Positions 1,163-28,400 of a DNA stretch of 29,247 nt are shown piece by piece (position 1 is the first letter of the stretch; every line of letters starts with the position of its first letter). The translations under genes were made by a program, and so were the position numbers. The stretch spans positions 1 through 29,247 of IMG/VR virus record IMGVR_UViG_3300025042_000034; one strand, written 5' to 3'. Under the pieces are notes generated by a model. It was not told where the DNA came from. It saw only the letters and a program-made list of their open reading frames with translations, and did no database searches. This DNA is from a virus. Taxonomy: Duplodnaviria; Caudoviricetes.

Positions 1163-1624
1163 TCACCTTGGAGGCATTAGATCCTCGCCTTGCCAGGTAT
1201 CGTTGCCAGGATCTGGATCCAGATATGCCTGAGTCCTTGATGCTAAATCTCGTAGACGTGTGGTAAATAAAAGGTTTAGTTCTGCAGGCAAGGGCTCCCC
1301 GTCGATCGGCATGACAATCCCATGATCGATATGTGCGTGCCCATCAAAGTCCTCAGGTGCATCTTCAAGTTCGCTTCCAGCCTTGCGTATATCCATGGCG
1401 AGAATCGCGCCGAGTCCTGAATAAATTACGTTTCCCGAAACTTGCGATCTAATTTGTTCGCGACATGTTTCCACTCCATGTGGCCTGGCAACAGAAATTA
1501 TCGAACTTCCCTTAGGAGGTCGAAATGCTGCTGGTTTTAATCTTTTCTTCTTTAAATCGTAATGCACTGGTGTTTTTAAGGCCCGAACTATCACTTCTGA
1601 GTCTTCAATTAAAGCGCGTTCCAT
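1163..1624 (-). CDS. Hypothetical protein, putative ADP-ribosyltransferase-fold toxin
   Basis: 153 aa; pattern VIVR...AFRP...ISVAR...G.I.A.DIR..G...P...HAHI resembles small ART-fold toxins (inference); last gene of an AT-rich operon. Confidence 0.55.
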   Translation of the reverse strand: MERALIEDSEVIVRALKTPVHYDLKKKRLKPAAFRPPKGSSIISVARPHGVETCREQIRSQVSGNVIYSGLGAILAMDIRKAGSELEDAPEDFDGHAHIDHGIVMPIDGEPLPAELNLLFTTRLRDLASRTQAYLDPDPGNDTWQGEDLMPPR

Positions 1625-1635
1625 GCGTATATCGC

Positions 1636-2205
1636 TTAAGCAGCAATACGAGAAATGCTCGCATTGCTCATGGTTGGTGATCGGTTAGATTGAGGATACA
1701 AATGATCGTTAACAAAATTACCCATTAAGTGGAAGTCAGCTTGGTTACAATACCCATCCATTATGAATTTATGCTGAGATTCCTTAAGAAGATAAAAAGA
1801 AAACTTTTTTTCACCTATTTCAAGGTGGCTCACGCCCGAGGATGTTTCCCACTCGAATGACACAGTACCGTTAGGATTAGGCGTAATCTCAGGGGCTGGA
1901 GCAATATTTAAAAGGCCGCGTATAGCGCCTAAGCTGTTTTCTATCGTTGAGCTTTGAAATGCGGGAGCACCGTATCCGTCCCAGTCATCGGGCATTTCAG
2001 CTAAGGCGTATACATTGTCGTATGCAAATTTACTTTCGTAAACAGGTATATGCTTAGTAGGAGTTCGTGCAAACTTTCGAGCGTTAATTTCTCGTTTTGG
2101 TACTTCGCCCTTATTAAGCAAGTTTGTTATATGATTAGAAAAATATGAATATATTTCAATGTTAGAGGCTGTGATGTTGCTAAGAGAGGGATAGTTAGTC
2201 ATCAA
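1636..2205 (-). CDS. Hypothetical protein with WDGYGA motif (candidate antitoxin)
   Basis: 189 aa; start overlaps the 3' end of the upstream gene; C-terminal globular-looking domain PDDWDGYGAP...PEITPNPNGTVSFEW; ends in IAA. Confidence 0.7.
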   Translation of the reverse strand: MMTNYPSLSNITASNIEIYSYFSNHITNLLNKGEVPKREINARKFARTPTKHIPVYESKFAYDNVYALAEMPDDWDGYGAPAFQSSTIENSLGAIRGLLNIAPAPEITPNPNGTVSFEWETSSGVSHLEIGEKKFSFYLLKESQHKFIMDGYCNQADFHLMGNFVNDHLYPQSNRSPTMSNASISRIAA

Positions 2206-3001
2206 TTGGCTCCAGTCGATCAGCTATATTTACAATCATGCTTTGGAATATTTTATTCTGAACTTTTTGAGCTAGTTTCAGTGTTGCAAGAATCGAGTTA
2301 ATGTCTGGTGCAATAGGGCTTGCGGCTTGAATGTTAGTATGGACTACAACAGCGCTGCTACCGTTGGCCGATCCTTCGCCTACTGATAATGATAACAGCA
2401 AGCCATCTCGTATAGGTGTGTTCAATTGGAAGTTGTATTTTATAGGATGGCCAGGCTCTTTTAATTCTTCTAGCGCGTCAGGCGTAGATAATACAAACCC
2501 TAGGTCATTCTTAATAAATTCTGAAGGGGACGCACCTCTAACCACTGATTCGTTAAAAGCATCTATATATTGCAAGGAAATATTACTAAATGGCGTTTGT
2601 TGTTCATTCTCTGGACGAGAGGATAAAAGCATCGATATGCCTTCCTTCAGAAATGGAGTAAAGGCTGACCATGAGTCGTAAGGAGGAACCGCATTAGCAG
2701 TGAAAACTCCCGGACCAAGCTGGTAAAGCTCTGCTGCATTTGGAGAGCGCCTTAGACGGTGCGCCACTTGCCCCCCCATTAGAGGAAAGCCGCTTGGTAT
2801 CAGTCTTTCGCTGTGAACACCGCCATTTTGACCTAGCTTTTCATTAAATCGCGAAAGAAGCTTTTCAAACGAGCTAGAGTCGAATATAGGAAACTGTGCT
2901 GGGATACCTGTTGGAGCGCCTGCGAATGGTGAATCACTGCCAGAGTTCCAATGAAGCTCTACGATGACTTCTACAAGAGGAGCGTTTCTATAACGGGTCA
3001 T
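2195..3001 (-). CDS. TIGR04255-family-like protein
   Basis: 268 aa; N-terminal YRNAPLVEVIVEL, central PPYDSW..F and ISLQYID motifs match my recollection of this family. Confidence 0.75.
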   Translation of the reverse strand: MTRYRNAPLVEVIVELHWNSGSDSPFAGAPTGIPAQFPIFDSSSFEKLLSRFNEKLGQNGGVHSERLIPSGFPLMGGQVAHRLRRSPNAAELYQLGPGVFTANAVPPYDSWSAFTPFLKEGISMLLSSRPENEQQTPFSNISLQYIDAFNESVVRGASPSEFIKNDLGFVLSTPDALEELKEPGHPIKYNFQLNTPIRDGLLLSLSVGEGSANGSSAVVVHTNIQAASPIAPDINSILATLKLAQKVQNKIFQSMIVNIADRLEPIDD

Positions 3002-3129: not shown

Positions 3130-3408
3130 TCAGCTTGCACGCTGGTATCTTCCATGAAGCTTGTTATGTTCAGTCATCGCTATGGCCCGTTGGTTGTCCA
3201 GGTATGTGGCCAAGTCCTGCAAATGTACGCCTCGTGCTGACTTCTGGCTGCTTTCTAACCTCACAATAGGCAAATCTATCTCTGTCGACATCACCTTGCG
3301 CTGCAGCTTCTCTACGCTTAAGTGGCTGAAATAATCGGCGCAGACCTTGGGCAGCGGAATCACTACCTGGCCGTCATACTGTGCCATGAGCAGAAATAGG
3401 GTATTCAT
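3130..3408 (-). CDS. Pyocin activator PrtN-family DNA-binding protein (possible excisionase)
   Basis: MNTLFLLMAQYDGQVVIPL...SQKSARGVHLQDLATYLD; SD GAGGA precedes ATG at 3408; last gene of the left operon, near int. Confidence 0.85.
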   Translation of the reverse strand: MNTLFLLMAQYDGQVVIPLPKVCADYFSHLSVEKLQRKVMSTEIDLPIVRLESSQKSARGVHLQDLATYLDNQRAIAMTEHNKLHGRYQRAS

Positions 3409-4455: not shown

Positions 4456-4659
4456 TCAGACCTCCCGTGCGCAGCTGATGCGCATGAGCTGGGTGTCGAT
4501 GGCCAGCATTTGGTTGCGCAGGTTGTCGATGGTTTTTAGCTGCCGTTCGCGTGCGGCTTCGCCTTTGGCTGGGGTGCGTAGCAGTAAGGCGATGTTGGAG
4601 GCGTGGGCGCTGTGTTGGGCTTTGAGGTCGCGTTCGTGCGCGAGGGGTGCGGTGGTCAT
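4456..4659 (-). CDS. Hypothetical protein
   Basis: 67 aa; ATGA overlap with upstream gene; fills the operon. Confidence 0.7.
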   Translation of the reverse strand: MTTAPLAHERDLKAQHSAHASNIALLLRTPAKGEAARERQLKTIDNLRNQMLAIDTQLMRISCAREV

Positions 4660-5204
4660 GGTTTGCGCACCTCAATGTTGACGCCTTCACTGTGCAGCGG
4701 GTGGGCTGGGGTGTAGATATCTGCCCCTACTAATTGGGAATCAAATTGCTGGCGGAATATAGCGTCAACGATGCGGTGGCCGCTGCTGCTGAGGTTTTTG
4801 GCCTCACGTGCGTCTTTATGCTGGTTGGTGGCGTGCAAGGCTGCTGCGCTGAGGTTGAGTTTGTCTGCCATCCGCTGGAGTTTTTGCAGGTCTGAAGCGC
4901 TTATGGTGAGGCCGCTGGCTTTTGCTGCGGTCAGCTCTTCGTCGTGACGTTGCTGTTGTAGCTCCATCGCTAGTGCGGCGTGGCTGCGTTCTGCGCTGAT
5001 GCGTTGGTTGAGGCCGCGTACGGTACTGCACAGGTCTGCATTGGCGGCGCGCAGTTCTGTGAGCAGGCGTTCTTCAACTGCTTGGCGTACGCGATAGCCG
5101 GCTTGCTTGCCTTTGTGCCAGGCGCAGCGGGTGGCGGTGATGGCGATAATCACCAGTGCTGGAATGATGAAGCACCCGGCGATTAGAAGTTGTTGGTTGT
5201 TCAT
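4656..5204 (-). CDS. Membrane-anchored coiled-coil hypothetical protein
   Basis: Start MNNQQLLIAGCFIIPALVIIAITA (one TM segment) after SD GGGAG; helical coiled-coil-like body. Confidence 0.75.
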   Translation of the reverse strand: MNNQQLLIAGCFIIPALVIIAITATRCAWHKGKQAGYRVRQAVEERLLTELRAANADLCSTVRGLNQRISAERSHAALAMELQQQRHDEELTAAKASGLTISASDLQKLQRMADKLNLSAAALHATNQHKDAREAKNLSSSGHRIVDAIFRQQFDSQLVGADIYTPAHPLHSEGVNIEVRKP

Positions 5205-5277
5205 TGGCTGTGTCTCCCGTGCCCGGCGCCGCGTACGTGGTAGGTGCGGCGCCGGGCTGGCTGGTTGTTGTTGGTGG

Positions 5278-6099
5278 TTAGTTGCCGATGGCGAAGGTGC
5301 CCACGGTGAGCTGGCACAGGCCGCCAATCTCGGCGGTGAGTTTGTCTTTAAACTCCTGGGCCATTTCTTCCTCTTGTTGCTCCTGCATCACCCAGCGCAG
5401 TTTGATGGTTGGCGGTTCGCTGGTAAGGATGCTGATGCGCAGGGTGAAGGTGCGCTCTTCCAGTCCGTCATAGGGCGGGGTGGTGAACAGCAGATCGGCT
5501 GGCTGCTTCTCTGCGTGGGCGGCTTCGATGTTGTCCATGCTGCTGCGCTGCGCGCCGAAGTTAGTTTCGGTGCTAGTGCGCTCAGCCTGCGCCTTGATGG
5601 TGATGGTGCGGATTTTTTGCACGGCGGCAGAGACGGGCATTTCAGTGTCGGTGCTGTCCAGTACCTTTATGAAGTGGTGCCAGTCTTCCATCCATTCGGC
5701 CAGATCGGCTTGCTTGTGAGTACGGCCTGTCATTTGCTGAATAGCTTTGAAGGCGGCGGTGGGTTTGAGCTTGAGTGATGCTTTGTCGTCGCCGTGGCCT
5801 GGCAGGTTCTGGTCGCCGAGGTTGAAGAGGACCGTGCAGCTCATGTCGTCCTGATCAACGAAGCCCTGAGGCAGCGCTTCTGTTTTCTGGTGCTGCTCTA
5901 CATAGGCGCAGAAGTCGCGGAACGACTGAGTGGCCAGACGCCCACGGAAGCGTGCGCGGTAAGCCTGGAGCAGCTCTAGCGATTCCACGCTGAACTGGTG
6001 CGGCAGCAAAATGGCGGGCGTGTTGGTGTCCAACGGTTTGCCGTTGGCTGCGGTATGGGTGGCCGTGATGCGGTCCAGGGTATCGAGTGGCAATGTCAT
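5278..6099 (-). CDS. DUF2303 / YfdQ-family phage protein
   Basis: 273 aa; RFRG...FNLG....PGHGD...QADLAEWMEDW motifs; SD AAGGA. Confidence 0.85.
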   Translation of the reverse strand: MTLPLDTLDRITATHTAANGKPLDTNTPAILLPHQFSVESLELLQAYRARFRGRLATQSFRDFCAYVEQHQKTEALPQGFVDQDDMSCTVLFNLGDQNLPGHGDDKASLKLKPTAAFKAIQQMTGRTHKQADLAEWMEDWHHFIKVLDSTDTEMPVSAAVQKIRTITIKAQAERTSTETNFGAQRSSMDNIEAAHAEKQPADLLFTTPPYDGLEERTFTLRISILTSEPPTIKLRWVMQEQQEEEMAQEFKDKLTAEIGGLCQLTVGTFAIGN

Positions 6100-6141
6100 G
6101 TTGCTTTCCTTGTGGTAGGTGGTTTGGTGTTGCGGTGGTGC

Positions 6142-6486
6142 TTAGCTGCGCGCGGTGACCGGAGCCTGGTCTTTGCTGAACATTTGGCCGGTGGGGTTAT
6201 CTGCAAACAGCTGCAGGCCGTTGGCGGTGAGGTAGAACGGGGTTTCGAGCGCTGTGTCTTCGCGCTTGCTGCCGCGCTTGGTGGGCTCTGTGAACTCCAG
6301 CTTGTGCGCTACTTTGAGCTGGTGAGTTTCGCCGATCTGGCTCATTTCCAGCGTGATGGTGACTTTGCCCTTTTTGCCGTGCTCTACCACGCCGCTGGCG
6401 ACCGCTGACAGGGCGGTGCCGAGCTGCTGGTTGAATACGCCGGCGTTGAGGTTGGCGATGAATTCGCCGGGGTCGGTTGCTTTCAT
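6142..6486 (-). CDS. Conserved phage protein usually paired with DUF2303 (YfdP-like)
   Basis: Start MKATDPGEF after SD AAGGA; KKGKVTITL and PTKRG..RED motifs. Confidence 0.75.
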   Translation of the reverse strand: MKATDPGEFIANLNAGVFNQQLGTALSAVASGVVEHGKKGKVTITLEMSQIGETHQLKVAHKLEFTEPTKRGSKREDTALETPFYLTANGLQLFADNPTGQMFSKDQAPVTARS

Positions 6487-6511
6487 GGTTTGCTTCCTTG
6501 GGTTGTGCCGC

Positions 6512-6760
6512 TCAAGCGGCTTGGCTTTGCTCGAGCTGGGCATCCAGATAGCGGGCCAGCTCTTGCAGGGTGACTATTTGAGGTGCGCGCTGTGACTTGT
6601 GCAGCTGCGTGAGGGTGATGCTGACGGCACCTTCGTCTATGAGGCGCAGCAGGTGCCGGTCGGTTTGGATATGCGGGAAGCACTCGGCGCGCAGCTCTGC
6701 CAACGTGAGGTAGGGCAGGGTGTAGCGGCGGCGCAGCTGCGCGAGGGTGGCGTTGCTCAT
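6512..6760 (-). CDS. Second PrtN-like DNA-binding protein
   Basis: Start MSNATLAQL with ATGA overlap; SQRAPQIVTLQELARYLD parallels SQKSARGVHLQDLATYLD of 3130-3408. Confidence 0.75.
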   Translation of the reverse strand: MSNATLAQLRRRYTLPYLTLAELRAECFPHIQTDRHLLRLIDEGAVSITLTQLHKSQRAPQIVTLQELARYLDAQLEQSQAA

Positions 6761-7155
6761 GCGGCGGGCACCTCTGCAATGGCTAAGGCGGTGTTGCGTA
6801 CGCGCAACAGCTCGACCAGCCCTTGCGGGGTGTGCGCCATTACCTGTTGCTCTACTAGGGTGCCGTTGAGAATGACGGCGACCAGTTCGGTGCCGTCTGC
6901 GCCCGCGGGCGCTACGCACACCGTGAGGTGCTTGGGTAGCTGGGCGCTGACGGCGGCGTAGGCTTCTGCGAGGCGTACGTGCTGCGGTTGAATCAGGCGC
7001 AGGCGGTCTATTACTTCGTTGACCGTGTCGCTGGCGACCTCTTTGCTGATGGTGGTGGGGTGGTCAAAGTGAACCTGCATCAGCTTGAGCACGCCAATGG
7101 CTTGATCAATGATCGGCATGGGGTTGTAGGGTGTGAATTTTGGCTGGTTCATCAC
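6757..7155 (-). CDS. Hypothetical phage protein
   Basis: 132 aa; translationally coupled at both ends; SD AGGAG. Confidence 0.75.
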   Translation of the reverse strand: MMNQPKFTPYNPMPIIDQAIGVLKLMQVHFDHPTTISKEVASDTVNEVIDRLRLIQPQHVRLAEAYAAVSAQLPKHLTVCVAPAGADGTELVAVILNGTLVEQQVMAHTPQGLVELLRVRNTALAIAEVPAA

Positions 7156-7454
7156 GCGGCGTGCTCCTGCGTTGAAGGCACTTGCACTACCTCTACGCCT
7201 AGCTCTTTGGCGAGCCAGAGCAGCCCTTTACTGGTGACGAAGGTTTTGGCGTAGATAACGCCGTTGCCGTTGTTCATCAGCTTGTTGCCGGTGTGCTCGC
7301 GAAGCTGAACGTGAAAGCGCCCGGCGTCTACATCGCTCTGACGTGGCAGGCGGTTGCAGTCCAGTATCTTGCGGCGCTTGAGCTCGGCGATTAGGCGGTT
7401 GCGACCAGTGCTGAGCATTTTGGCGGCGGTGGCCAGGTCGTATTTATGCGGCAT
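7152..7454 (-). CDS. Stand-alone phage antirepressor KilA-C (ANT) domain protein
   Basis: AAKMLSTGRNRLIAELK...LPRQ...GRFHV...KTFVTSKGLLWL is the ANT/KilA-C signature. Confidence 0.85.
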   Translation of the reverse strand: MPHKYDLATAAKMLSTGRNRLIAELKRRKILDCNRLPRQSDVDAGRFHVQLREHTGNKLMNNGNGVIYAKTFVTSKGLLWLAKELGVEVVQVPSTQEHAA

Positions 7455-7683
7455 GGTGGGTCACCGATTTATGCGCCAGATAGCCGCGGTATAGGTGCGC
7501 GTTGTCGAGCAGCTCCATCAGGCGTTGGAACTCTGCGGAATCGATCGCTCGTGCTTCTACCGCCATGTTGAGCGAGCCCAGCCCTTTGCCAAGGTTGACT
7601 CCGGCGCAGTAGCCCGGCTCGCTATATCGCACTTGCTGTAGAGCTCGGGTGATGGCTTTGATGACCGCTTTGCGATTGCTCAT
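7444..7683 (-). CDS. Hypothetical phage protein
   Basis: 79 aa; overlaps both neighbours in the operon. Confidence 0.7.
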   Translation of the reverse strand: MSNRKAVIKAITRALQQVRYSEPGYCAGVNLGKGLGSLNMAVEARAIDSAEFQRLMELLDNAHLYRGYLAHKSVTHHAA

Positions 7684-7973
7684 GCCGCCACCTTCGCCGT
7701 GTCTAGCGTGCCGTTGGCGCAGGCCTCAATCCATTCAGCCACCCGGTGTGCAAGCGTCTCAGCTGGCTGTTTGGGCAGGGTGAGTGTGTTGTGGGTGCCC
7801 TCGGCACGAAAGCTGAGGCGGATATGGTCCGGCAGCTGCGTTATGTGCAGGGTGGCGTGTATGGGCTGCGGCCGAAACGGTGCGCTGATGTTGATCAGCT
7901 TCAGTCTGAAGCAACCCGGTAGGCGCACTTGGGTGTGCAGCAGTTGCTGGGTGACGGCAGTCAGCTGGATCAT
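7680..7973 (-). CDS. Hypothetical phage protein
   Basis: 97 aa; ATGA overlaps at both ends; SD GGAG. Confidence 0.75.
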   Translation of the reverse strand: MIQLTAVTQQLLHTQVRLPGCFRLKLINISAPFRPQPIHATLHITQLPDHIRLSFRAEGTHNTLTLPKQPAETLAHRVAEWIEACANGTLDTAKVAA

Positions 7974-8164
7974 GCGGCGTCATCTCCGGTCCAGGGGCCT
8001 GTGGGCTCTGGGGTGGGAGTTGCGCGCATGGCTGCGCCGCTGCGGTTGCCACCGATGATGATGGCTAGGCCGGTGCGGGCGGTTATGGCTTTTATGTGGT
8101 CTGGATTACTGGCTGCAGTTGGGTGCAGGTAAATCCGGCAGGTAGTACTTGGCTGTGTCCGCAT
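7970..8164 (-). CDS. Small hypothetical protein, first gene of the leftward operon (position of lambda N)
   Basis: 64 aa; directly downstream of the PL-like promoter; coupled to the next gene. Confidence 0.7.
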   Translation of the reverse strand: MRTQPSTTCRIYLHPTAASNPDHIKAITARTGLAIIIGGNRSGAAMRATPTPEPTGPWTGDDAA

Positions 8165-8199
8165 TGTGTTGACCCTGTGTGGTAGGTGGGTTCAACACA

Positions 8200-8241
8200 A
8201 AAATAGCTCAGCTAATTATTTAAGGCAATAGTCCAGCTAAT
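8200..8241 (-). promoter_or_regulatory. PL-like promoter with two repressor operators
   Basis: Minus strand TTGCCT (8228-8223) -17- TATTTT (8205-8200); operators AATAG-N5-CTAAT at 8202-8216 and 8227-8241. Confidence 0.75.
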
Positions 8242-8256
8242 AAATACTTAATATTT

Positions 8257-8994
8257 TTATAGCTCGACTATTTTTCTCTTAGCTTTGCCACAAATTGACC
8301 ACTCTTCGGTCAGCTTGATGATGCGGTCGGGAAAATCTGGGTTGGTTGCTTCCAGATAGAAAACTCCGCCCTCACGACGCAAACGTTTGAGCGTTACGCT
8401 CTGATCGCTGGTGCGTTTGGCGAGCACGATATCGCCGGGGAGGGCTTCGAGTTCGGGATCTATGACTACCCGGTCGCCGGGGTATATGTCTGGCACCATG
8501 CTTGTGCCCTCTACCTTGAGTACGAATGCCCGATTGCTCACTGGGCCTCCTGAGTGAATCCATTCGTCTGCGTCGCCTGGTTGAAAGTTATCAACGGCTT
8601 CGCAAAAAGAGCCAGCTTGAACTTCACCAATCACAGGCAGCATGCGGCCTGCGGTCGGCATGGAGACTACGTTGTCTGATACCAGGTGATCTGCAGAAGG
8701 TTCTTGTATGCGCTGGTTGAGCAGCTTGGCCAACCGTGGGCTGACCTCTTCAGGTAGAAAGTCGAGCGCTTTCGCTAGCTTTAGCAGGGCTTCGATGTTG
8801 AGTGGCATGCCGCCATTCATGTACTGGCTGACGCTGCCTTGCGAAAGCCATCCGCACTGTTCTGCCACCACGTACTGGTTAAGCGTTTTGTCTGCTGCCT
8901 TACGCGCTTTGTAAATGGCTTTTAGGCGTGCGGATTCCTCGTCAATGATGACGCGGTCGACCTCTGGCGGTTTGTTGGGGTAGTCGTTGCTCAT
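8257..8994 (-). CDS. cI: CI-like repressor (HTH plus S24 autopeptidase)
   Basis: HTH (NQYVVAEQCGWLSQGSVSQY), Ala-Gly cleavage site (VQAG), catalytic Ser (GTSM) and Lys (TLKRL). Confidence 0.95.
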   Translation of the reverse strand: MSNDYPNKPPEVDRVIIDEESARLKAIYKARKAADKTLNQYVVAEQCGWLSQGSVSQYMNGGMPLNIEALLKLAKALDFLPEEVSPRLAKLLNQRIQEPSADHLVSDNVVSMPTAGRMLPVIGEVQAGSFCEAVDNFQPGDADEWIHSGGPVSNRAFVLKVEGTSMVPDIYPGDRVVIDPELEALPGDIVLAKRTSDQSVTLKRLRREGGVFYLEATNPDFPDRIIKLTEEWSICGKAKRKIVEL

Positions 8995-9113: not shown

Positions 9114-9326
9114 ATGAAACTCACCGAAGCAATGCCGCTGAATGAATTTGTGCAGGGACGTAAGCAGGATCAGATTGCCGCCGCGTTGGGTGTTACCCAG
9201 GGCTCGGTTTCTCAGATGATGAACTCTAGCCGTTCAATCTGGGTAAGGGCGCTTCCGGACGGGGGCTACCAAGCTTATGAGGTGCGCCCGATTGGGCGAA
9301 AGCCAGCACAACAGATTGCCGCATAA
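9114..9326 (+). CDS. cro: Cro-like repressor
   Basis: 70 aa, divergent from cI; QDQIAAALGVTQGSVSQM HTH followed by lambda-Cro-like beta region (AYEVRP). Confidence 0.9.
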   Translation: MKLTEAMPLNEFVQGRKQDQIAAALGVTQGSVSQMMNSSRSIWVRALPDGGYQAYEVRPIGRKPAQQIAA

Positions 9327-9355
9327 AACAAACCCTGCTGCTTTGGCGGCAGGGT
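9325..9355 (-). terminator. Intrinsic terminator-like hairpin
   Basis: ACCCTGCTGC/GCGGCAGGGT stem at 9332-9355; TTGTTTT tail on the minus strand. Confidence 0.6.
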
Positions 9356-9487
9356 AGGTGTCAGTGCCAAGGGACCACCTACCACGGAAGACCCTTGACC
9401 CTGACGGGATGATGAGCAGCTACCACACCGCTCATCGCAACAGCCGGCCCCCGACACAGCCAGTGCAGAAGGGGCCGAGCCGCTGTA
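9325..9487 (-). ncRNA. Candidate antisense regulatory RNA (~160 nt, four hairpins)
   Basis: Minus-strand promoter-like TAGCCA (9522-9517) -18- TATGCT (9498-9493); four consecutive stems; the last stem has a T-rich tail only on the minus strand; loops complementary to motifs at left-operon start sites. Confidence 0.5.
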
Positions 9488-9523
9488 GACCAAGCATAAG
9501 CGGTATAACCGCGCCTTGGCTAC

Positions 9524-9546
9524 GGCGTTACAGGGGAATTAACGCC
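9524..9546. promoter_or_regulatory. Palindromic site GGCGTTA-N9-TAACGCC (copy 1)
   Basis: Perfect 7-bp inverted repeat around the SD of the CII-like gene; near-identical copy at 13858-13880. Confidence 0.6.
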
Positions 9547-9547
9547 A

Positions 9548-10036
9548 ATGAGTAGACAACACCTTCTGCCGGACGCTGGACCGGTGCTCGATATCCACCA
9601 GGCCGTTTATGTGGCTGCCCGCGAATGCAGGGGCGGTATGACGGCGTTGGCTGCAACGGTGGTTGTGCCTTACGACACTTTTCAGAAGAAAGTGAGCGTG
9701 GCCAATGCCACCCACCATTTGCTGCTGCATGAGTTTATGGCGGTGGCTGAGGCGGTAGATGATGATCGCATTGATGATGCCTTTGCTCGCGCTCGCGGCA
9801 AGCTACTGTTCAAACCCCAACCGGTACCGGCCACCCGTCAGGCGCTTGAGGCGCTGGGCAAGATGCTGGCTGCTGAGGGTGCGTTTGTTGGCAGCCTGCA
9901 TGAAGGCGTGGCCGACAGTAAGTGGGAGCAGCACGAGGTTGAGAAGCTGGAGCACTGCGCGCATAAGGTGATCAGCGAGATTCTAGGCATCTGCGCGGGT
10001 GCGCGGCAGGCGATGGAGGGCGACAACCATGGCTGA
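9548..10036 (+). CDS. Phage regulatory CII-family protein
   Basis: 162 aa downstream of cro; GGMTALA...TFQKKV.......HHL HTH-like N-terminus and ADSKWEQHEV C-terminus typical of CII-like proteins. Confidence 0.75.
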   Translation: MSRQHLLPDAGPVLDIHQAVYVAARECRGGMTALAATVVVPYDTFQKKVSVANATHHLLLHEFMAVAEAVDDDRIDDAFARARGKLLFKPQPVPATRQALEALGKMLAAEGAFVGSLHEGVADSKWEQHEVEKLEHCAHKVISEILGICAGARQAMEGDNHG

Positions 10037-10259
10037 TGCATGCGATCTGGGCAACGATCGCGCCCAACAGATAATCGATGATGCCCTCGCGGCACGCCGA
10101 CAACAGGCCTCGCGGCCTGTTGTTGATCACCTGTTTTGTGAGTCTTGCGGCGTGGCTATTCCGCCCAAGCGCCGTGAGTTATTGCCTGGTGTTGAGACCT
10201 GCGTGCATTGCCAGGAGATTCTTGAGCATAAGGGGGTGGGCCGTGGCAGACCTGTCTGA
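10029..10259 (+). CDS. TraR/DksA C4 zinc-finger protein
   Basis: MADACD N-terminus; CESC...IPPKRRELLPGVETCVHCQ; SD GGAGG. Confidence 0.92.
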   Translation: MADACDLGNDRAQQIIDDALAARRQQASRPVVDHLFCESCGVAIPPKRRELLPGVETCVHCQEILEHKGVGRGRPV

Positions 10260-11289
10260 TATTACGCTCGATGACTTGGCTGGCCTGCTGGCCCATATTA
10301 ACGCCGACACTGATCGCGACAGCTGGGTGAAGATCGGCATGGGTGTGAAGGCGCACTTCGGCGAAGACGGCTTTAACGATTGGAACAGCTGGAGCCAGAA
10401 CAGCCCTGATTACAAGCCAGCTGATGCGCTGAGCGCGTGGAAGTCGTTCAAAGGCGCGAAGGTAACCATCGGTACGGTGGTGCATTTGGCGAAAGAGGGC
10501 GGCTGGAAGTTTACCAAGCGCGAGCTGACCGCTAAAGAGAAGCGTGAGCGCAAGGCAGAGCAGGAAGCCCGCCGCAAACAGCGCCAAGCTGAGGTTGAAG
10601 CTGACGTAGCCCAACTGACCGCAATGCAGGCTGAGATTCAGAGGATTACCGGTCGGCTGCTGGCGGAGTTTACGCAGGCGCGCGGTAAGAGTGAGTACTT
10701 AGAGCGTAAACAGGTGCCGCCCTACGGTGTGCGGTTTATTACGCGCAATGTGGTGTTGAGCATTGATGCACAGCTGGTGCGCTGTGATTTGTGGACGGGT
10801 GATGATATCGCCCGTTTTTTTGCGAACCTGCCCAACCCAAGGCCCGACCATCACACCTTCATGAAGCTGGACGCGGGCACCTTTCTAGTGCCGCTGCGCG
10901 ATATCGATAAGGTGGTGTGGAGTTTTCAGGCGATATCGGCCAACGGCACGAAGCTGTTTCCTAAGTTTGCGCGTAAGCAGGGCTGCATGCATTGCATTGG
11001 TACGCTGGATGGTGCCGAGGTAATTGTGGCGGCTGAGGGCTATGCAACGGCGGCAAGTGTTGCCCAGGCTAGCGAGTGGCCTACGGTGATGACGGTGGAT
11101 GTGGGCAATATGGCGGTGCTGGCTCGGCAGTTGCGTGCGAAGTATCCGGCGGCGCGGCTGATTTTGGCGGGCGATGATGACCCCAAACCAGACGGTAAGA
11201 ATCCGGGCCGCACTGCGGCTGAAGCTATTGCTGCGGAATTGGGCCTTACGGTGGTGTTCCCGGTTGTGCCTATGCAGGTGGCGGCATGA
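10243..11289 (+). CDS. DNA primase (PriCT-2 plus Toprim domains)
   Basis: Probable GTG start at 10243; DRDSWVKIGMG...WS (PriCT-2); AEGYATA and AGDDD (Toprim). Confidence 0.88.
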   Translation: MADLSDITLDDLAGLLAHINADTDRDSWVKIGMGVKAHFGEDGFNDWNSWSQNSPDYKPADALSAWKSFKGAKVTIGTVVHLAKEGGWKFTKRELTAKEKRERKAEQEARRKQRQAEVEADVAQLTAMQAEIQRITGRLLAEFTQARGKSEYLERKQVPPYGVRFITRNVVLSIDAQLVRCDLWTGDDIARFFANLPNPRPDHHTFMKLDAGTFLVPLRDIDKVVWSFQAISANGTKLFPKFARKQGCMHCIGTLDGAEVIVAAEGYATAASVAQASEWPTVMTVDVGNMAVLARQLRAKYPAARLILAGDDDPKPDGKNPGRTAAEAIAAELGLTVVFPVVPMQVAA

Positions 11290-13019
11290 CGGCGGCGCGT
11301 AAGGTTGATTGGAATGATCTGCATGTTGAGTTTGGCCTGGCGGTAGTACGCGAGCAGCTGCTGGCTGCAGCCAATGAGCCGGTGCGCTCTGTTGCGCCCA
11401 GCGCGGATGATCTTCCCCCGGCCCCATCTGGTACTGAGCCGCCGCCGGCGGCTGAACTAACTGAGGGGTACGGGGAGGGCTGGCATCTGGAGAAGGTGCG
11501 GGCGCGGTTTGCGTTGATTGAGGGCGAGACCAAGGTATTTGATTTGCACCGCCGGGCCATCGTGCGCAAGGCTGGTTTTGAGGCGCTGGTGGGTAAGGCG
11601 CTGGCTAAGCAGTGGTTTGAGCTGCCAGAGAAAAAGGCGATAGACCCAGACAATGCGAAGCGGGTGGAGAATGACGCGAAGTTGGGCAAGCGCTCGAAGG
11701 CGACCAAGGACGGCACTGATGTGTATTGGCGTTATGTGTACCTGGATGGCTCGCAGGATATTTACGACCGCCAGTTACGGCAGCGCTTGCCAGCGGCGGC
11801 GGTGAAGCTGGCTATGGGCGATGGCTTTACGCTGTGGCAGAACAGCGACAATCGGCGGGTGATTCCGTCTGAGAACCTGCTGTTTGATCCGCAGATGATT
11901 GAGAGCCCGGCGGATACGATCAATACCTTTGAGGGTTTGCCGCTGACACCGGTACCGAACGGTTCGGCTTGCGAGGGCATGGTCTGGTTGATCAGCTTTC
12001 TATGTAACGGTCAGAAGGATGCCATTCAGTGGCTGACGCGCTGGCTGGCTTACCCGCTGCAACGGGTGGGCGCGAAGCTGGACACGGCGGTGCTAATGCA
12101 TTCGACCATGGAGGGCTCGGGTAAGAGTCTGTTGTTTGGCGACATCATGCGGCCTATCTATGGCCCTTACGGGGCTACGGTGGGGCAGGCGCAGCTAGAG
12201 AGTAACTGGACGCAGTGGCAGTCGAACAAGCTGTACGGGTTGTTTGAAGAGGTGGTGAGCCGCGATCAGCGTTACAACCAGGTGGGCAAGATTAAGCATA
12301 TGGTGACGGGCAAGACGGTACGGATCGAGAGTAAGTTTGTGAACGGTTGGGAGGAGGCCAACTACATGAACGCGGTGTTTCTCTCGAACGAGATCCTGCC
12401 ATGGCCAATTGGCGAGAATGACCGGCGCATGCTGGTGTTGTGGCCTGAGAAGACGCTGCCCGAGCGAGCGCAAAAACGAATCGGTTATGAGTTGAAGAAC
12501 GGCGGTATTGAGGCGTTCTTTGATTACTTGTTGGAGTATGACCTGGGCGACTTTGACGAGCGCACGCGGCCACCGGCTACGCCTGCTCGGCAGCGGCTGG
12601 TTGAGTTGAGCCGGGCCAGCTGGGATACGTTTTACCATCAATGGAAGGCTGGAGAGCTGGGCGTGCCGTTTGATCTGTGCCGCACGCAGGATCTGCACGA
12701 TCTGTTTCTTGAGTGGTGCTCAAGGCTTAAAGAGCATTCGCTTAGCGAGACGAAGTTCAGCCTATTTGTGTCGACCAAGCCGGACACGTTTAAGTCTGAC
12801 TCACAGATATTCTGGACGGATGACAACGGTGACCGGCGGCGCTCTATCTTCTTTATGCCTTCCCCCGACCCCAACCTTGATATGAGCAATGCCAAGCAGG
12901 TGGGGCGGCAGGTGTATGCGTGGCGATTGGAGGCGCTGAAGGCGGGCTGGCACCCCGATAAGTGGGAGAAGTGCATAGGCTTTGCTGCGCCGCTGGCAGG
13001 GAGTAGGGCTGATGGCTGA
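11286..13019 (+). CDS. SF3/D5-like replicative helicase (DUF5906-like)
   Basis: Walker A EGSGKS, Walker B LFEEV, motif C FLSN, DRR arginine finger. Confidence 0.88.
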   Translation: MTAARKVDWNDLHVEFGLAVVREQLLAAANEPVRSVAPSADDLPPAPSGTEPPPAAELTEGYGEGWHLEKVRARFALIEGETKVFDLHRRAIVRKAGFEALVGKALAKQWFELPEKKAIDPDNAKRVENDAKLGKRSKATKDGTDVYWRYVYLDGSQDIYDRQLRQRLPAAAVKLAMGDGFTLWQNSDNRRVIPSENLLFDPQMIESPADTINTFEGLPLTPVPNGSACEGMVWLISFLCNGQKDAIQWLTRWLAYPLQRVGAKLDTAVLMHSTMEGSGKSLLFGDIMRPIYGPYGATVGQAQLESNWTQWQSNKLYGLFEEVVSRDQRYNQVGKIKHMVTGKTVRIESKFVNGWEEANYMNAVFLSNEILPWPIGENDRRMLVLWPEKTLPERAQKRIGYELKNGGIEAFFDYLLEYDLGDFDERTRPPATPARQRLVELSRASWDTFYHQWKAGELGVPFDLCRTQDLHDLFLEWCSRLKEHSLSETKFSLFVSTKPDTFKSDSQIFWTDDNGDRRRSIFFMPSPDPNLDMSNAKQVGRQVYAWRLEALKAGWHPDKWEKCIGFAAPLAGSRADG

Positions 13020-25450: not shown

Positions 25451-28400
25451 ATGAGCATCAAAGATCGCCTGATTCAGTTCGTCCTGCGTGGCAAAGATGA
25501 GCTTTCGCAGGAGGCGCGCAAAGTCTCCAATGCGCTTGAGGATGTGCAAAGCAAAAGCCAGGGGCTGCGTGACGAGTTCGATAAAGCCAAATCAGCCAAA
25601 GGCCTGGTGACTGCATTCCGCACTACCAGTGACACGGCAGACCGAGTGCGCAGCACGCTGGAACGTACACAGCGCCGGGCTGCTGAACTGCGCGAGGAAC
25701 TTGAGAAAAACCCAGGCAGCAAGGGCCTGCAGGTGTCGCTCCGCGAGACCGAGCGCGAGTCTGCCAAGGTCGCGCGGGAGCTGGACAAGGTCACCGCCAA
25801 AACCGCCGAGCTGGAAGCTGCGGCCAGAGCTGCAGAAGTAGACACTCGCGATCTGGCAACCGAAGAGCGCCGCCTGACTGATGAGCTGGATAGAGCCAAG
25901 CGCGCAGTCGGTAACAACACAGATGAAGTGCGAAAGCTTGAGCGTGAACTGCGCAAGGCGTCAAAGGCTTCTAGCGAACATCGCTCGCGGGTAGATGCCG
26001 GTCGGCAGGCTATGTCATCCGGCGCCAAGCAGGTGCTGGCCTTTGCTGCTGCTTATGTCTCGCTGAACGCGGCATTTGGTGTAGTGCAAAAAGGCTTGAA
26101 CCTGGTGCGCGATGGCATCTATTCGATGCTGGCCACCGGCGATCAGTTCGAGGGCATGCAGACCCAGCTCACGGCGCTGATGGGCTCGATTGAGGGTGGC
26201 GAGAAAGCCACCGATTGGATCAAGCAATTCACGCGTGACACACCCCTGCAGCTGCAAGACGTGACGCAGGCGTTTACTTTGCTCAAGGCGTTTGGCCTTG
26301 ACCCGATGGATGGCACGCTGCAGGCCATCACCGACCAGTCTGAGAAGCTGGGCGGCGGGATGGAGAAGCTGACGGGCATCTCGTCTGCCCTTGGCCAGGC
26401 ATGGGCCAAGCAGAAGCTGCAGGGTGAAGAGATTCTGCAGCTGGTCGAGCGTGGCGTGCCGGTGTGGGATCTGTTGGAAAAGGTGACCGGCAAGAATACC
26501 GAGCAGCTTCAAAAGCTCAGCAGCGCGGGCAGGCTTGGCCGGGATGTTATCAGCGACCTAATCAAAGAGATTGGCAGCGCAGCGGAAGGCTCAGCCGCCG
26601 CGAATATGACGCGCCTGACCGGTATTGTCAGTAACCTGAAAGATGTCGCTTCGGACTTTCTGGACCGCATAGCCAGAAGCGGCGCCATGGAGTACGTGAA
26701 AGAGCAACTACTAAGTGTAGCGCAAGCCATCGATCAGATGGATAAAGATGGCCGGCTTGATGCGCTGGCTGAGTCGTTGAGCACGGCGTTCATTCAGGCA
26801 TCGGAGCGGGTGAAGGCCTTCATCACAGATGTGGCAGATGTTGAGTTTGATGAGATCGCTAGTAAGGCAACGGTTTGGCTGAGCGACTTTGGCACCAAGC
26901 TGGATGATGCGCGCATGCGCGTGCAGTTGTTTTTTGCGCCTTTCACAACGCTGTTTCAAGGTTTGGTAGCCGGGTTTGCTGCAGTGGGGCTGGCCGCTGT
27001 TAGTTTCGCTCGAGGGATCGTTGATCCCTTTCTGGCAGCTGGCGAAGCAATCGCCAATGCGTTTGATCTTGATGGTATGCGGGAGCGAATAGCTAGTGCC
27101 CGTAATGGTTTTGCCGAGCTTCAGGGTGCGTTCGTAAACCAGATCGAGGAGTCAGGAAAGAGCATCCGCAATGCCTGGGATGTGACCACCCAACACCAGG
27201 TGCAGCGCTCGCAAGAGGTGACCGCCAAGTTCAAGACCGAAGCAGACCAACAGCGCATGTTGAACCAAGCGCTGGCCGACGAACTCATCAACAACCAGCA
27301 ACGTGTTAAAGAGGCGGCCATTGATGCCGCTATTGCGGGCACTGAGGCCATAGCCGACTTCGCCGAAGCCCAAAAACTGATAGACACAGCCAGCACGGTA
27401 ACCCAGCTGGAAGGGCTACGCGCTGCAATGCTGCGTGCCTACCAAGATGGCGCCATAACCCAGCAAGAATACGCAGCAGGCCTGGGCATTGTTGCCGACA
27501 AGCTAGACGCCATAGCAGGTGAAGCCGACAAAACCGCCAAGTCCCTCTCTGACGTAATCGCCGAGCTGAAAGACTTCGCCGGCGTGCAGAAGGCCATCGG
27601 CAACGCGAAAACCGATGTTGATATCGGCAAGCTGCGGTCGGCCATCACCAAGCTATATGAGGATGGCAAGCTAACTGTCGACGAGTACACAAAAGCCGTT
27701 GCCAATCTGGATAAGCAGCAAGCCAAACTGACCAAATCCACCGGCGACCAGGCGGACGCGCAGAGCAATTTGGAGAAACAGCTACAGTCAGTCAGCGATG
27801 CATTGGCCGCGCAAGCTGATGCAGAAGCGGCAGCGGCATCGGCTCGTGAAGAGCAGCAAGCCGTGTTCCGCGACGCCTTCAGCACCTTCTTTGACGACGT
27901 AATGACCGCCGCTCGTTCGCCTCTGGCGGAGCTGAGTAGCAAGGCGCTGGAGGCGTTCGACTCTCTGCGCGGCATCAGTAGCGTCGATATTGATCTAGAC
28001 ACCAGCAGCCTGGAAGGCACGGCCGCATCGCTCGCGCTAGTGAATGAGAAGGTGGGCGAGCTGCAGTCCGGATTGGATGATCAGTTCAGAGGCCCATTCG
28101 CGCGCTGGGCGGATGAAACCCTGTTCGCCAGCCGGCAGCTGCAAAAGCAGTTTCTTGAGCAGACCGCCACGCTGCAAACGCTCATGCAGGGCTATGACGA
28201 CGGCACGCAAGCGCTGGGTGACTTCACGCGTGAAGCCAGACAGGCCCGCGAGAATCTAGACCTGCTCGAAGAGGCAGACCTTCAGCAGCTGGATGCTGCT
28301 ATTGCCAGCGCCAACCATCGCATGCAAGAGCTGGGCAATAGCAGCCGCACGGCACTGGATGGCCTGCGTGACGAGCTGGACCGCCTGCAGGGCAACACCG

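Follow-up and report, generated by a model that had tools for sequence, protein, structure and literature searches.

In phages P1 and P7, two short loop sequences of the C4 RNA pair in trans near the ribosome-binding site (RBS) of the antirepressor operon, and variants of these sequences underlie heteroimmunity (PMC12197685). The CI RNA of the satellite phage P4 is likewise a small structured immunity RNA that pairs with two separate sequences (PMC4825925), and the c4 and c4-a1b1 motifs are listed in PMC2864571. Here we analyzed a 29,247-nucleotide (nt) stretch of viral DNA (IMG/VR record IMGVR_UViG_3300025042_000034, Caudoviricetes), referred to as the window herein, in which two short sequences, box1 and box2, recur at translation starts of the left operon and again, on the other strand, between cro and cII. 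As a lambdoid prophage of the Pseudomonadaceae type, the window has the gene order integrase, left operon, cI, cro, a 221-nt gap, cII, primase, terminase, portal, and capsid. Judged by sequence comparison, the boxes are a real, conserved, and co-varying two-part signal at the RNA level. We consider it probable, at roughly 0.7, that a trans-acting antisense RNA from the cro-cII gap places two loops on box2 and box1 and thereby represses translation of the left operon, so that early lytic genes would be kept silent.

By analogy, this element would work like P1 C4 or P4 CI, and it is a member of neither, since it has no Rfam hit and a different layout. The resemblance to C4 (RF01695; targets RF03163) is at the sequence level, in that an antirepressor operon has, at its RBS, segments to which two short segments of the element are complementary. 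C4 is encoded at the head of the operon under its control and is cut from it, with maturation by RNase P. In contrast, the candidate RNA has its own predicted promoter, is separated from its targets by cro and cI, would have three or four target starts and one to five box1 loops, and would be fully antisense to the PR transcript. Neither the window nor the element in 10 relatives matched the C4 or c4-a1b1 covariance model. An RNA motif search with Rfam as a whole gave no hit on the element of 10 relatives and none at gathering score in the window, where four hits were at chance level (E 6.7 to 7.9), and blastn of the gap against phage records returned short chance-level matches only. One relative, L295, carries a true C4 RNA with a c4-a1b1 site (2334-2527) on the cII side, separate from the element, and L272, L282, and L290 have RT-15 RNA motifs in their left arms.

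Processing of a primary transcript yields P4 CI, which causes termination by pairing with the flanking seqA/seqC, whereas the main targets here are distant translation starts; SfV and N15 relatives also have a CI-type RNA. Among other prophage small RNAs, P22 sar, lambda OOP, and Gifsy-1 IsrK control ant or cII (PMC12197685, PMC7067206), and both OOP and STnc6030 are described in PMC7067206. OOP is antisense to the 3′ end of cII (PMC7067206), whereas the element here lies upstream of cII; the mRNA that IsrK activates is its own read-through product. In the passages of the sources cited, none of sar, OOP, and IsrK is described as targeting several left-operon starts from the cro-cII gap. In the literature searched, mostly outside subscription journals, no description of this element was found, and an unnamed entry in a motif list is possible.

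Conservation and concerted change of the boxes

Box1 (CACCTACCAC) has exactly four exact copies in the window, three on the minus strand (8188-8179, 6121-6112, and 5246-5237, referred to as sites 1, 2, and 3) and one on the plus strand (9376-9385). By chance, 0.05 copies were expected, and none of 100 shuffles reached four. Box2 (GACACAGCCA) also has four exact copies, at 8159-8150 and 5214-5205 on the minus strand and at 9453-9462 and 27383-27392 on the plus strand (0.11 expected; four reached in 0/100 shuffles). The first-pass annotation of this DNA had reported the minus-strand boxes and the plus-strand copies at 9376-9385 and 9453-9462, with box1-box2 gaps of 19, 14, and 22 nt; all of these coordinates were confirmed, far above chance, and the gap lengths are correct. 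Its list lacked a box1 variant with one mismatch, CAGCTACCAC, which lies in a third cro-cII hairpin (plus strand, 9417-9426). Also missing from it was the box2 copy at 27383-27392, which lies inside the tape-measure gene with no box1 near and is probably a chance occurrence.

The comparison with relatives used a first set of 179 loci with cII (131 unique) and an enlarged set of 213 loci with a defined gap, reduced to 75 representatives at 85% identity. Conservation at orthologous positions was borne out, as relatives have box1 at these three starts of the left operon and in one to five cro-cII hairpin loops. At least seven box1 7-mer types occur, CTCTCAC and CTCTGAC among them, differing between phages and matching within a phage. 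We called the cores independently for each site with one generic pattern and excluded loci with a box outside that pattern. The site 1 core was the commonest gap core in 119/120 loci, 83 of which have one box type; the site 2 core was the phage's own gap core in 82/90 loci; and the site 3 core was the gap core in 76/83 loci, with some of the misses due to a mis-picked downstream word. A quick CII tree with 58 rows gave 12 changes of the gap core, 11 of the site 1 core, and 12 of the joint state, with 11/12 concerted. Independent pairs pointed the same way in 2/2, 5/6, 2/2, and 2/3 cases, and none pointed the opposite way.

For words shared between site and gap, the longest was longer with the gap of the same phage than with the gaps of other phages, at 10.6 vs 7.0 at site 1 (n=59), 9.8 vs 7.1 at site 2 (n=51), and 9.9 vs 7.5 at site 3 (n=51). 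The phage's own 9-mer had 93 mRNA-sense copies in the left arms, 49 of them by construction (49/75 representatives have a shared word of at least 9), and zero copies on the other strand or in the right arm (362 and 274 kb). Eighty-eight of the 93 lie 12 to 61 nt before an ATG, a count whose chance rate was not controlled. Box2 co-varies as well, taking the forms GACACAGCCA, CACAGCAC, GACACAACCA, and CACATGCAA. For instance, Halomonas phage H4907 carries CCCACCAC together with a wholly different box2, GCAAACC(A/G)ATG, both in the gap and at left-operon starts. Since the layout in H4907 (L380, 6040-6300) is the same, the system as read from sequence extends beyond the Pseudomonadaceae.

Box type tracks the flanking genes, with an area under the curve (AUC) of 0.88 to 0.96, and not cI or cro (0.51 and 0.57). 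Since box type is independent of cI and cro, the box match persists across a swapped immunity cassette; since it tracks the flanking genes, the concordance is partly descent. A scan of viral contigs for the exact bipartite pattern returned 123 loci, nearly all unrelated and few in this prophage family, and a CII homologue was found in 62/401 Pseudomonadaceae genomes searched, a count that includes a more distant CII class. By eye, the gaps of L291, L338, L296, and L276 have secondary loops of another type (e.g. GCCTCACCAGC) that match their own site 3, and the main loop matches sites 1 and 2, which suggests that the secondary loops are target-specific. In L372-L376, a second prophage family with a distant CII, gap loops are of CCACCAC type, a word matching them precedes the first left gene, and 4/5 have clear leftward terminators after cro. 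A quick scan of 21 unique loci without cII found no clear matching box on the opposite strand of the distant DUF2303 loci L300-L334.

Within the left operon, every gene pair from a 64-amino acid (aa) open reading frame (ORF) through prtN overlaps by 4 to 11 nt, and true intergenic gaps occur only before p204 (25 nt), the DUF2303 gene (42 nt), and a 182-aa gene (73 nt). It follows that sites 1 to 3 head three of four independently initiated blocks. The fourth block, p204, has no box in the window, and box2 is present there in 37/51 representatives.

At site 1, box1 (minus strand, 8179-8188) lies ∼5 nt from the 5′ end predicted for the PL mRNA, and box2 (8150-8159) covers codons 2 to 5 of the 64-aa ORF. 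Among 70 representatives, this box2 occupies all three reading frames (48/10/7) and is missing from 5. We predicted PL on the minus strand at 8200-8228 (−35 TTGCCT, 8228-8223; −10 TATTTT, 8205-8200; +1 near 8193), and a PL-like promoter was predicted in 62/70 representatives. A stem at 8164-8200 (minus strand; 9 bp, a bulge, and 3 bp) had been said to bury the Shine-Dalgarno (SD) sequence. The predicted +1 falls within the 5′ arm of this stem, which is predicted to be complete only in RNA starting upstream of PL. Because the stem begins upstream of the predicted PL start, the SD would be buried in RNA that reads through from cI, and that part of the claim stands, but not in PL-started mRNA. 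The mean predicted folding energies are −13.9 kcal/mol for read-through RNA and −4.3 kcal/mol for PL-started leaders, and a terminator-like element separates cI from the first ORF in only 17/45 short intervals. From these folds we infer that cI read-through RNA would hide its own SD and that the PL mRNA would offer box1 near its 5′ end in a loop-accessible form.

Site 2 has box1 (minus strand, 6112-6121) abutting the SD of the DUF2303 gene, just where it had been placed. The 8/10 box2 reported over the start codon (6088-6097, minus strand) fared less well: it is weak and, as the window holds 42 two-mismatch copies of box2, at background level, and box2 is conserved at the DUF2303 start in only 14/60 representatives. 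Site 3 presents box1 (5246-5237) in the loop of a minus-strand hairpin (5221-5257) whose stem is indeed a perfect 12 bp, and an exact box2 (5205-5214) sits between the SD and the ATG at 5204. Box2 is immediately 5′ of this ATG in 55/58 representatives.

A candidate leftward RNA and its proposed action

Between cro and cII we predicted a leftward promoter on the minus strand (9493-9522), with a −35 TAGCCA (9522-9517), an 18-nt spacer, a −10 TATGCT (9498-9493), and a +1 near A9486. The pattern TAGCCA-17/18-TAnnnT stands on the minus strand 27 to 29 nt from the cII start in 123/131 loci, the −35 word having been picked after inspection of the data. A generic sigma70 rule gave 31/35 matches for the minus strand, as compared with 14 for the plus strand and ∼10 after shuffling. 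Applied at a fixed window upstream of cII, the same rule was matched in 70/75 representatives, as compared with 0 to 6/75 for 14 control windows. A consensus promoter scan missed this promoter, and the middle bases of its −10 vary among relatives. An apparent duplication of the gap cassette is seen in L281, L375, and the related L353 and L378, where the promoter-like site lies further left, after only one copy.

This predicted promoter resembles lambda PRE and phage 186 pE, as it lies beside the cII start, is convergent with PR, and accompanies a CII of the CP76 family. It differs from them in its 5′ leader, which has loops complementary to left-operon starts and often a terminator-like end. 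The inverted repeat bound by phage 186 CII lies at −38 and −58 of pE (PMC6593788). In the window, a 7-bp inverted repeat (9524-9546), placed immediately upstream of the leftward −35, surrounds the cII SD and could be either an RNA hairpin or a CII site. Its centers are near −41 and −57 of the leftward promoter, ∼16 bp apart as compared with 20 for pE, and enclose the SD. An inverted repeat of at least 5 bp is found at the cII SD in 60/75 representatives, with varying arms and loop length.

The RNA predicted from this promoter is ∼164 nt long (minus strand, 9323-9486). As folded in silico, it forms a hairpin at 9485-9438 with anti-box2 (9462-9453), one at 9436-9411 with the anti-box1 variant (9426-9417), one at 9405-9360 with anti-box1 (9385-9376), and a terminator-like stem at 9355-9332 followed by a U-rich tail. 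Across relatives, the predicted leftward RNA is 80 to 260 nt long with loops complementary to both boxes. The predicted RNA folded with a z-score of −6.85, as compared with −4.87 for the other strand, and terminator-like ends were found in 45 of the 75 representatives on the minus strand (28 when shuffled) and in 11 on the plus strand (5.7 when shuffled). An RNAalifold consensus of 19 mixed short elements registered poorly on both strands (−3.99 and −1.1 kcal/mol) and was not used. Anchored gap stems favored A-C on the plus strand, equivalent to G-U on the minus strand, 51 vs 19, as compared with 10 vs 16 for site 3 stems (Fisher p 0.0036); a stricter helix count over all loci gave 49:13 vs 17:18 (p 0.003). 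The first-pass annotation had put forward the boxes as targets of the candidate RNA, and this proposal gained comparative support from the concerted change, the conserved leftward promoter, and the minus-strand stem bias; the pairing itself we infer.

In the mechanism that we favor, a small antisense RNA would be made leftward from the promoter-like site between cro and cII. Its 5′ loop (anti-box2) would cover the region from the SD to the start codon or the first codons, and its 3′ loop (anti-box1) would dock 15 to 25 nt upstream. A block of initiation at each head gene would then silence the overlapping chain behind it, namely the 64-aa ORF through the KilAC gene to prtN, the DUF2303 gene, and the genes from the 182-aa gene on. 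Leaky expression from PL, from cI read-through, and from PR would be held down by the RNA. Since the stretch of the PR transcript between cro and cII complements the RNA over its whole length, firing of PR would titrate the RNA and free the left operon. The leftward promoter may be constitutive, yielding a lysogen immunity RNA, or activated by CII, yielding a PRE/pE-like leader.

A wider proposal, which we offer tentatively and at somewhat less than even odds, is that this widespread Pseudomonadaceae/Halomonas prophage family uses an RNA switch that is programmable and operates alongside CI/Cro. An antisense RNA built of several modular loops would silence each independent left-operon start, the PR transcript would cancel it on induction, RNA-level immunity groups would result, and extra loops of other sequence types would reach other targets or competing phages. 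Lysis-lysogeny control in Pseudomonas temperate phages is usually inferred from lambda gene order. If the antisense reading holds, these phages have a second, RNA-based control layer beside the repressor protein, with immunity groups predictable from a 7-mer, and an RNA-RNA code stays matched across an exchangeable cI/cro cassette in a common prophage family. It would also provide a natural set of orthogonal RNA/target pairs and account for the unannotated 130 to 400 nt cro-cII gaps in these genomes.

RNA libraries bear on expression through relative L272, which is 99.8% identical to Pseudomonas aeruginosa phage LPPA56 over 12.7 kb and whose stretch is present as contigs in 14 RNA runs. Among four shallow contig runs, X2 has a contig (4763-6069) that starts one base before the predicted +1 (4764 in L272); since contigs show neither strand nor start, this contig end is a weak hint. 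Run X3 gave one long, uninformative contig.

Two further features of the gap were noted. The predicted RNA contains, in its 3′ end, an 8/10 box1-like word, CACCTACCCT (minus strand, 9360-9351), whose sequence would allow pairing with the RNA's own anti-box1 loop. This word is the only candidate for a seqA/seqC-like segment of the P4 kind, and in the relatives displayed, nothing of it beyond CACC is conserved. In L004, L186, L209, and L272, an SD-bearing leftward ORF lies directly behind the element, 182 to 206 nt from cII, and the gaps also carry rightward ORFs after cro. A related 68-aa leftward ORF faces the rightward ORF in L004, L209, and L272 (∼4910-5110, plus strand, in L272), and the ORF of L186 differs.

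Counterevidence and alternative explanations

Several results weigh against an antisense RNA acting on the boxes. The independent-pair tests are too small to reach p 0.05 (best p 0.0625), and box type follows lineage for several genes (AUC 0.88 to 0.96). In the predicted RNA fold, the anti-box segments are partly paired. With regard to strand, site 1 stems lean like the gap stems (11 vs 5), the stricter helix count on representatives gave 37:12 vs 6:6 (p 0.15), and the stems are not phylogenetically independent. Box mismatches between gap and target showed no G-U bias (wobble 9 vs 12; 27 transversions). By plain duplex energy, sites 1 to 3 took ranks 1, 4, and 5 among 37 starts, and sequence pairing alone thus separates the sites poorly. 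The leftward RNA was not observed, as three 2026 raw-read runs (X21, X23, and X24) had 0 reads on the L272 stretch; contigs of X13 and X1 bridge the promoter site, and X14 has a gap at 4703-4802. A looser stem tally, which put the bias everywhere, was dropped as confounded by A/C-rich strands and over-extension.

The alternative that survives best, though we regard it as unlikely, is that the boxes are sense-strand sites for a phage RNA-binding protein, acting either in nutL/nutR-like antitermination or as a translational repressor with the cro-cII RNA as a CsrB-like decoy. In lambda, one nut site follows PL and one follows cro. The same arrangement is seen here, where site 1 follows PL, the gap copies follow cro, and a small ORF comes first in the left operon. 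The boxes are also identical in sense on both transcripts, within hairpin loops, and the gap and site 3 modules are alike in sense. A sense-strand protein site would fit as well with the folding of the plus strand (z −4.87), with a box type that follows lineage, and with the lack of a wobble signal in trans. However, there are extra sites at internal starts, and the conserved leftward promoter is left unexplained. Moreover, the site 1 hairpin to be bound is predicted to be absent on PL-started mRNA (−4.3 vs −13.9 kcal/mol).

The 64-aa ORF at the N position, which had been suggested as such an antiterminator, is conserved among relatives, yet its 64 homologues have no arginine-rich motif (at most 4 Arg per 10 residues), and it does not co-vary with the boxes. 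For instance, the 64-aa ORFs of L238 and L196 are 92% identical while their boxes differ at the gap, site 1, and site 2. Conversely, L246 and L238 have the same box with 64-aa ORFs only 37% identical, and L246 and L196 are 86 to 91% identical in Ant, p8889, PrtN, and CII, yet their boxes differ. Among the phage proteins in the compared set, none tested tracked the box in this trio. The missing arginine-rich motif and box tracking, together with sites at several starts rather than once per operon, disfavor the nut-like reading. A structure model of the 64-aa ORF was beta-alpha-beta at low confidence (predicted local distance difference test, pLDDT, 61.7); fold searches with this model gave nothing meaningful (best E 0.56; best Z 2.2), and its Atlas matches were hypothetical proteins only, under 0.9.

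Considerably less probable is that the antisense RNA activates translation in the manner of IsrK, through disruption of the site 1 and site 3 hairpins. The ORF that IsrK activates is coupled to an antirepressor gene (PMC4825925), and the site 1 stem would cover the SD in read-through RNA. Nevertheless, pairing at box2 would obstruct the ribosome, since box2 lies between the SD and the ATG (site 3, 55/58 representatives) or covers the first codons, and at site 2 box1 is immediately next to the SD, where there is no stem that could be opened.

Lastly, we give very little credence to the view that the leftward promoter is merely a PRE/pE-like promoter for cI and that the repeats are DNA-level sites or duplication products without an RNA role: the promoter position, the CP76-family CII, the inverted repeat flanking the leftward −35, and one contig running from the predicted +1 into cI would agree with it, but the box copies show strict strand specificity and are bound to translation starts, the stems that carry them vary freely in sequence, and the boxes preserve theirs in three reading frames and change together across a cI/cro cassette that is itself freely exchanged (AUC 0.51 and 0.57).

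Genes of the prophage around the element

The cI repressor gene (minus strand, 8257-8994; HTH_3 and Peptidase_S24) separates the left operon from cro (plus strand, 9114-9326; PF09048), and cII (plus strand, 9548-10036; PF06892, CP76 family) encodes a protein 93% identical to the CII of Pseudomonas neustonica. The left operon, which contains one DUF2303 gene, two PrtN-like genes, and one KilAC gene, begins with the 64-aa ORF (minus strand, 7970-8164; phrog_13491) at the head of the overlapping chain to prtN. Behind site 1 in this chain is the KilAC-domain antirepressor-like gene (minus strand, 7152-7454; PF03374). The site 2 gene, identified by a domain match to DUF2303, spans 5278-6099 on the minus strand. 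The site 3 gene, defined by ORF layout, encodes 182 aa (minus strand, 4656-5204) and overlaps the next ORF by 4 nt.

The two PrtN-like/excisionase genes (3130-3402 and 6512-6760) lie within one left arm. Beside the integrase, three minus-strand ORFs (1163-3001) have no Pfam or PHROG match and are possible cargo or defence genes. The primase (10078-13019) is split into two overlapping ORFs (PriCT-2/Toprim, then DUF5906) that jointly match one 802-position PHROG model, and the relative L001 has an insertion of ∼1 kb near the start of the first primase ORF.

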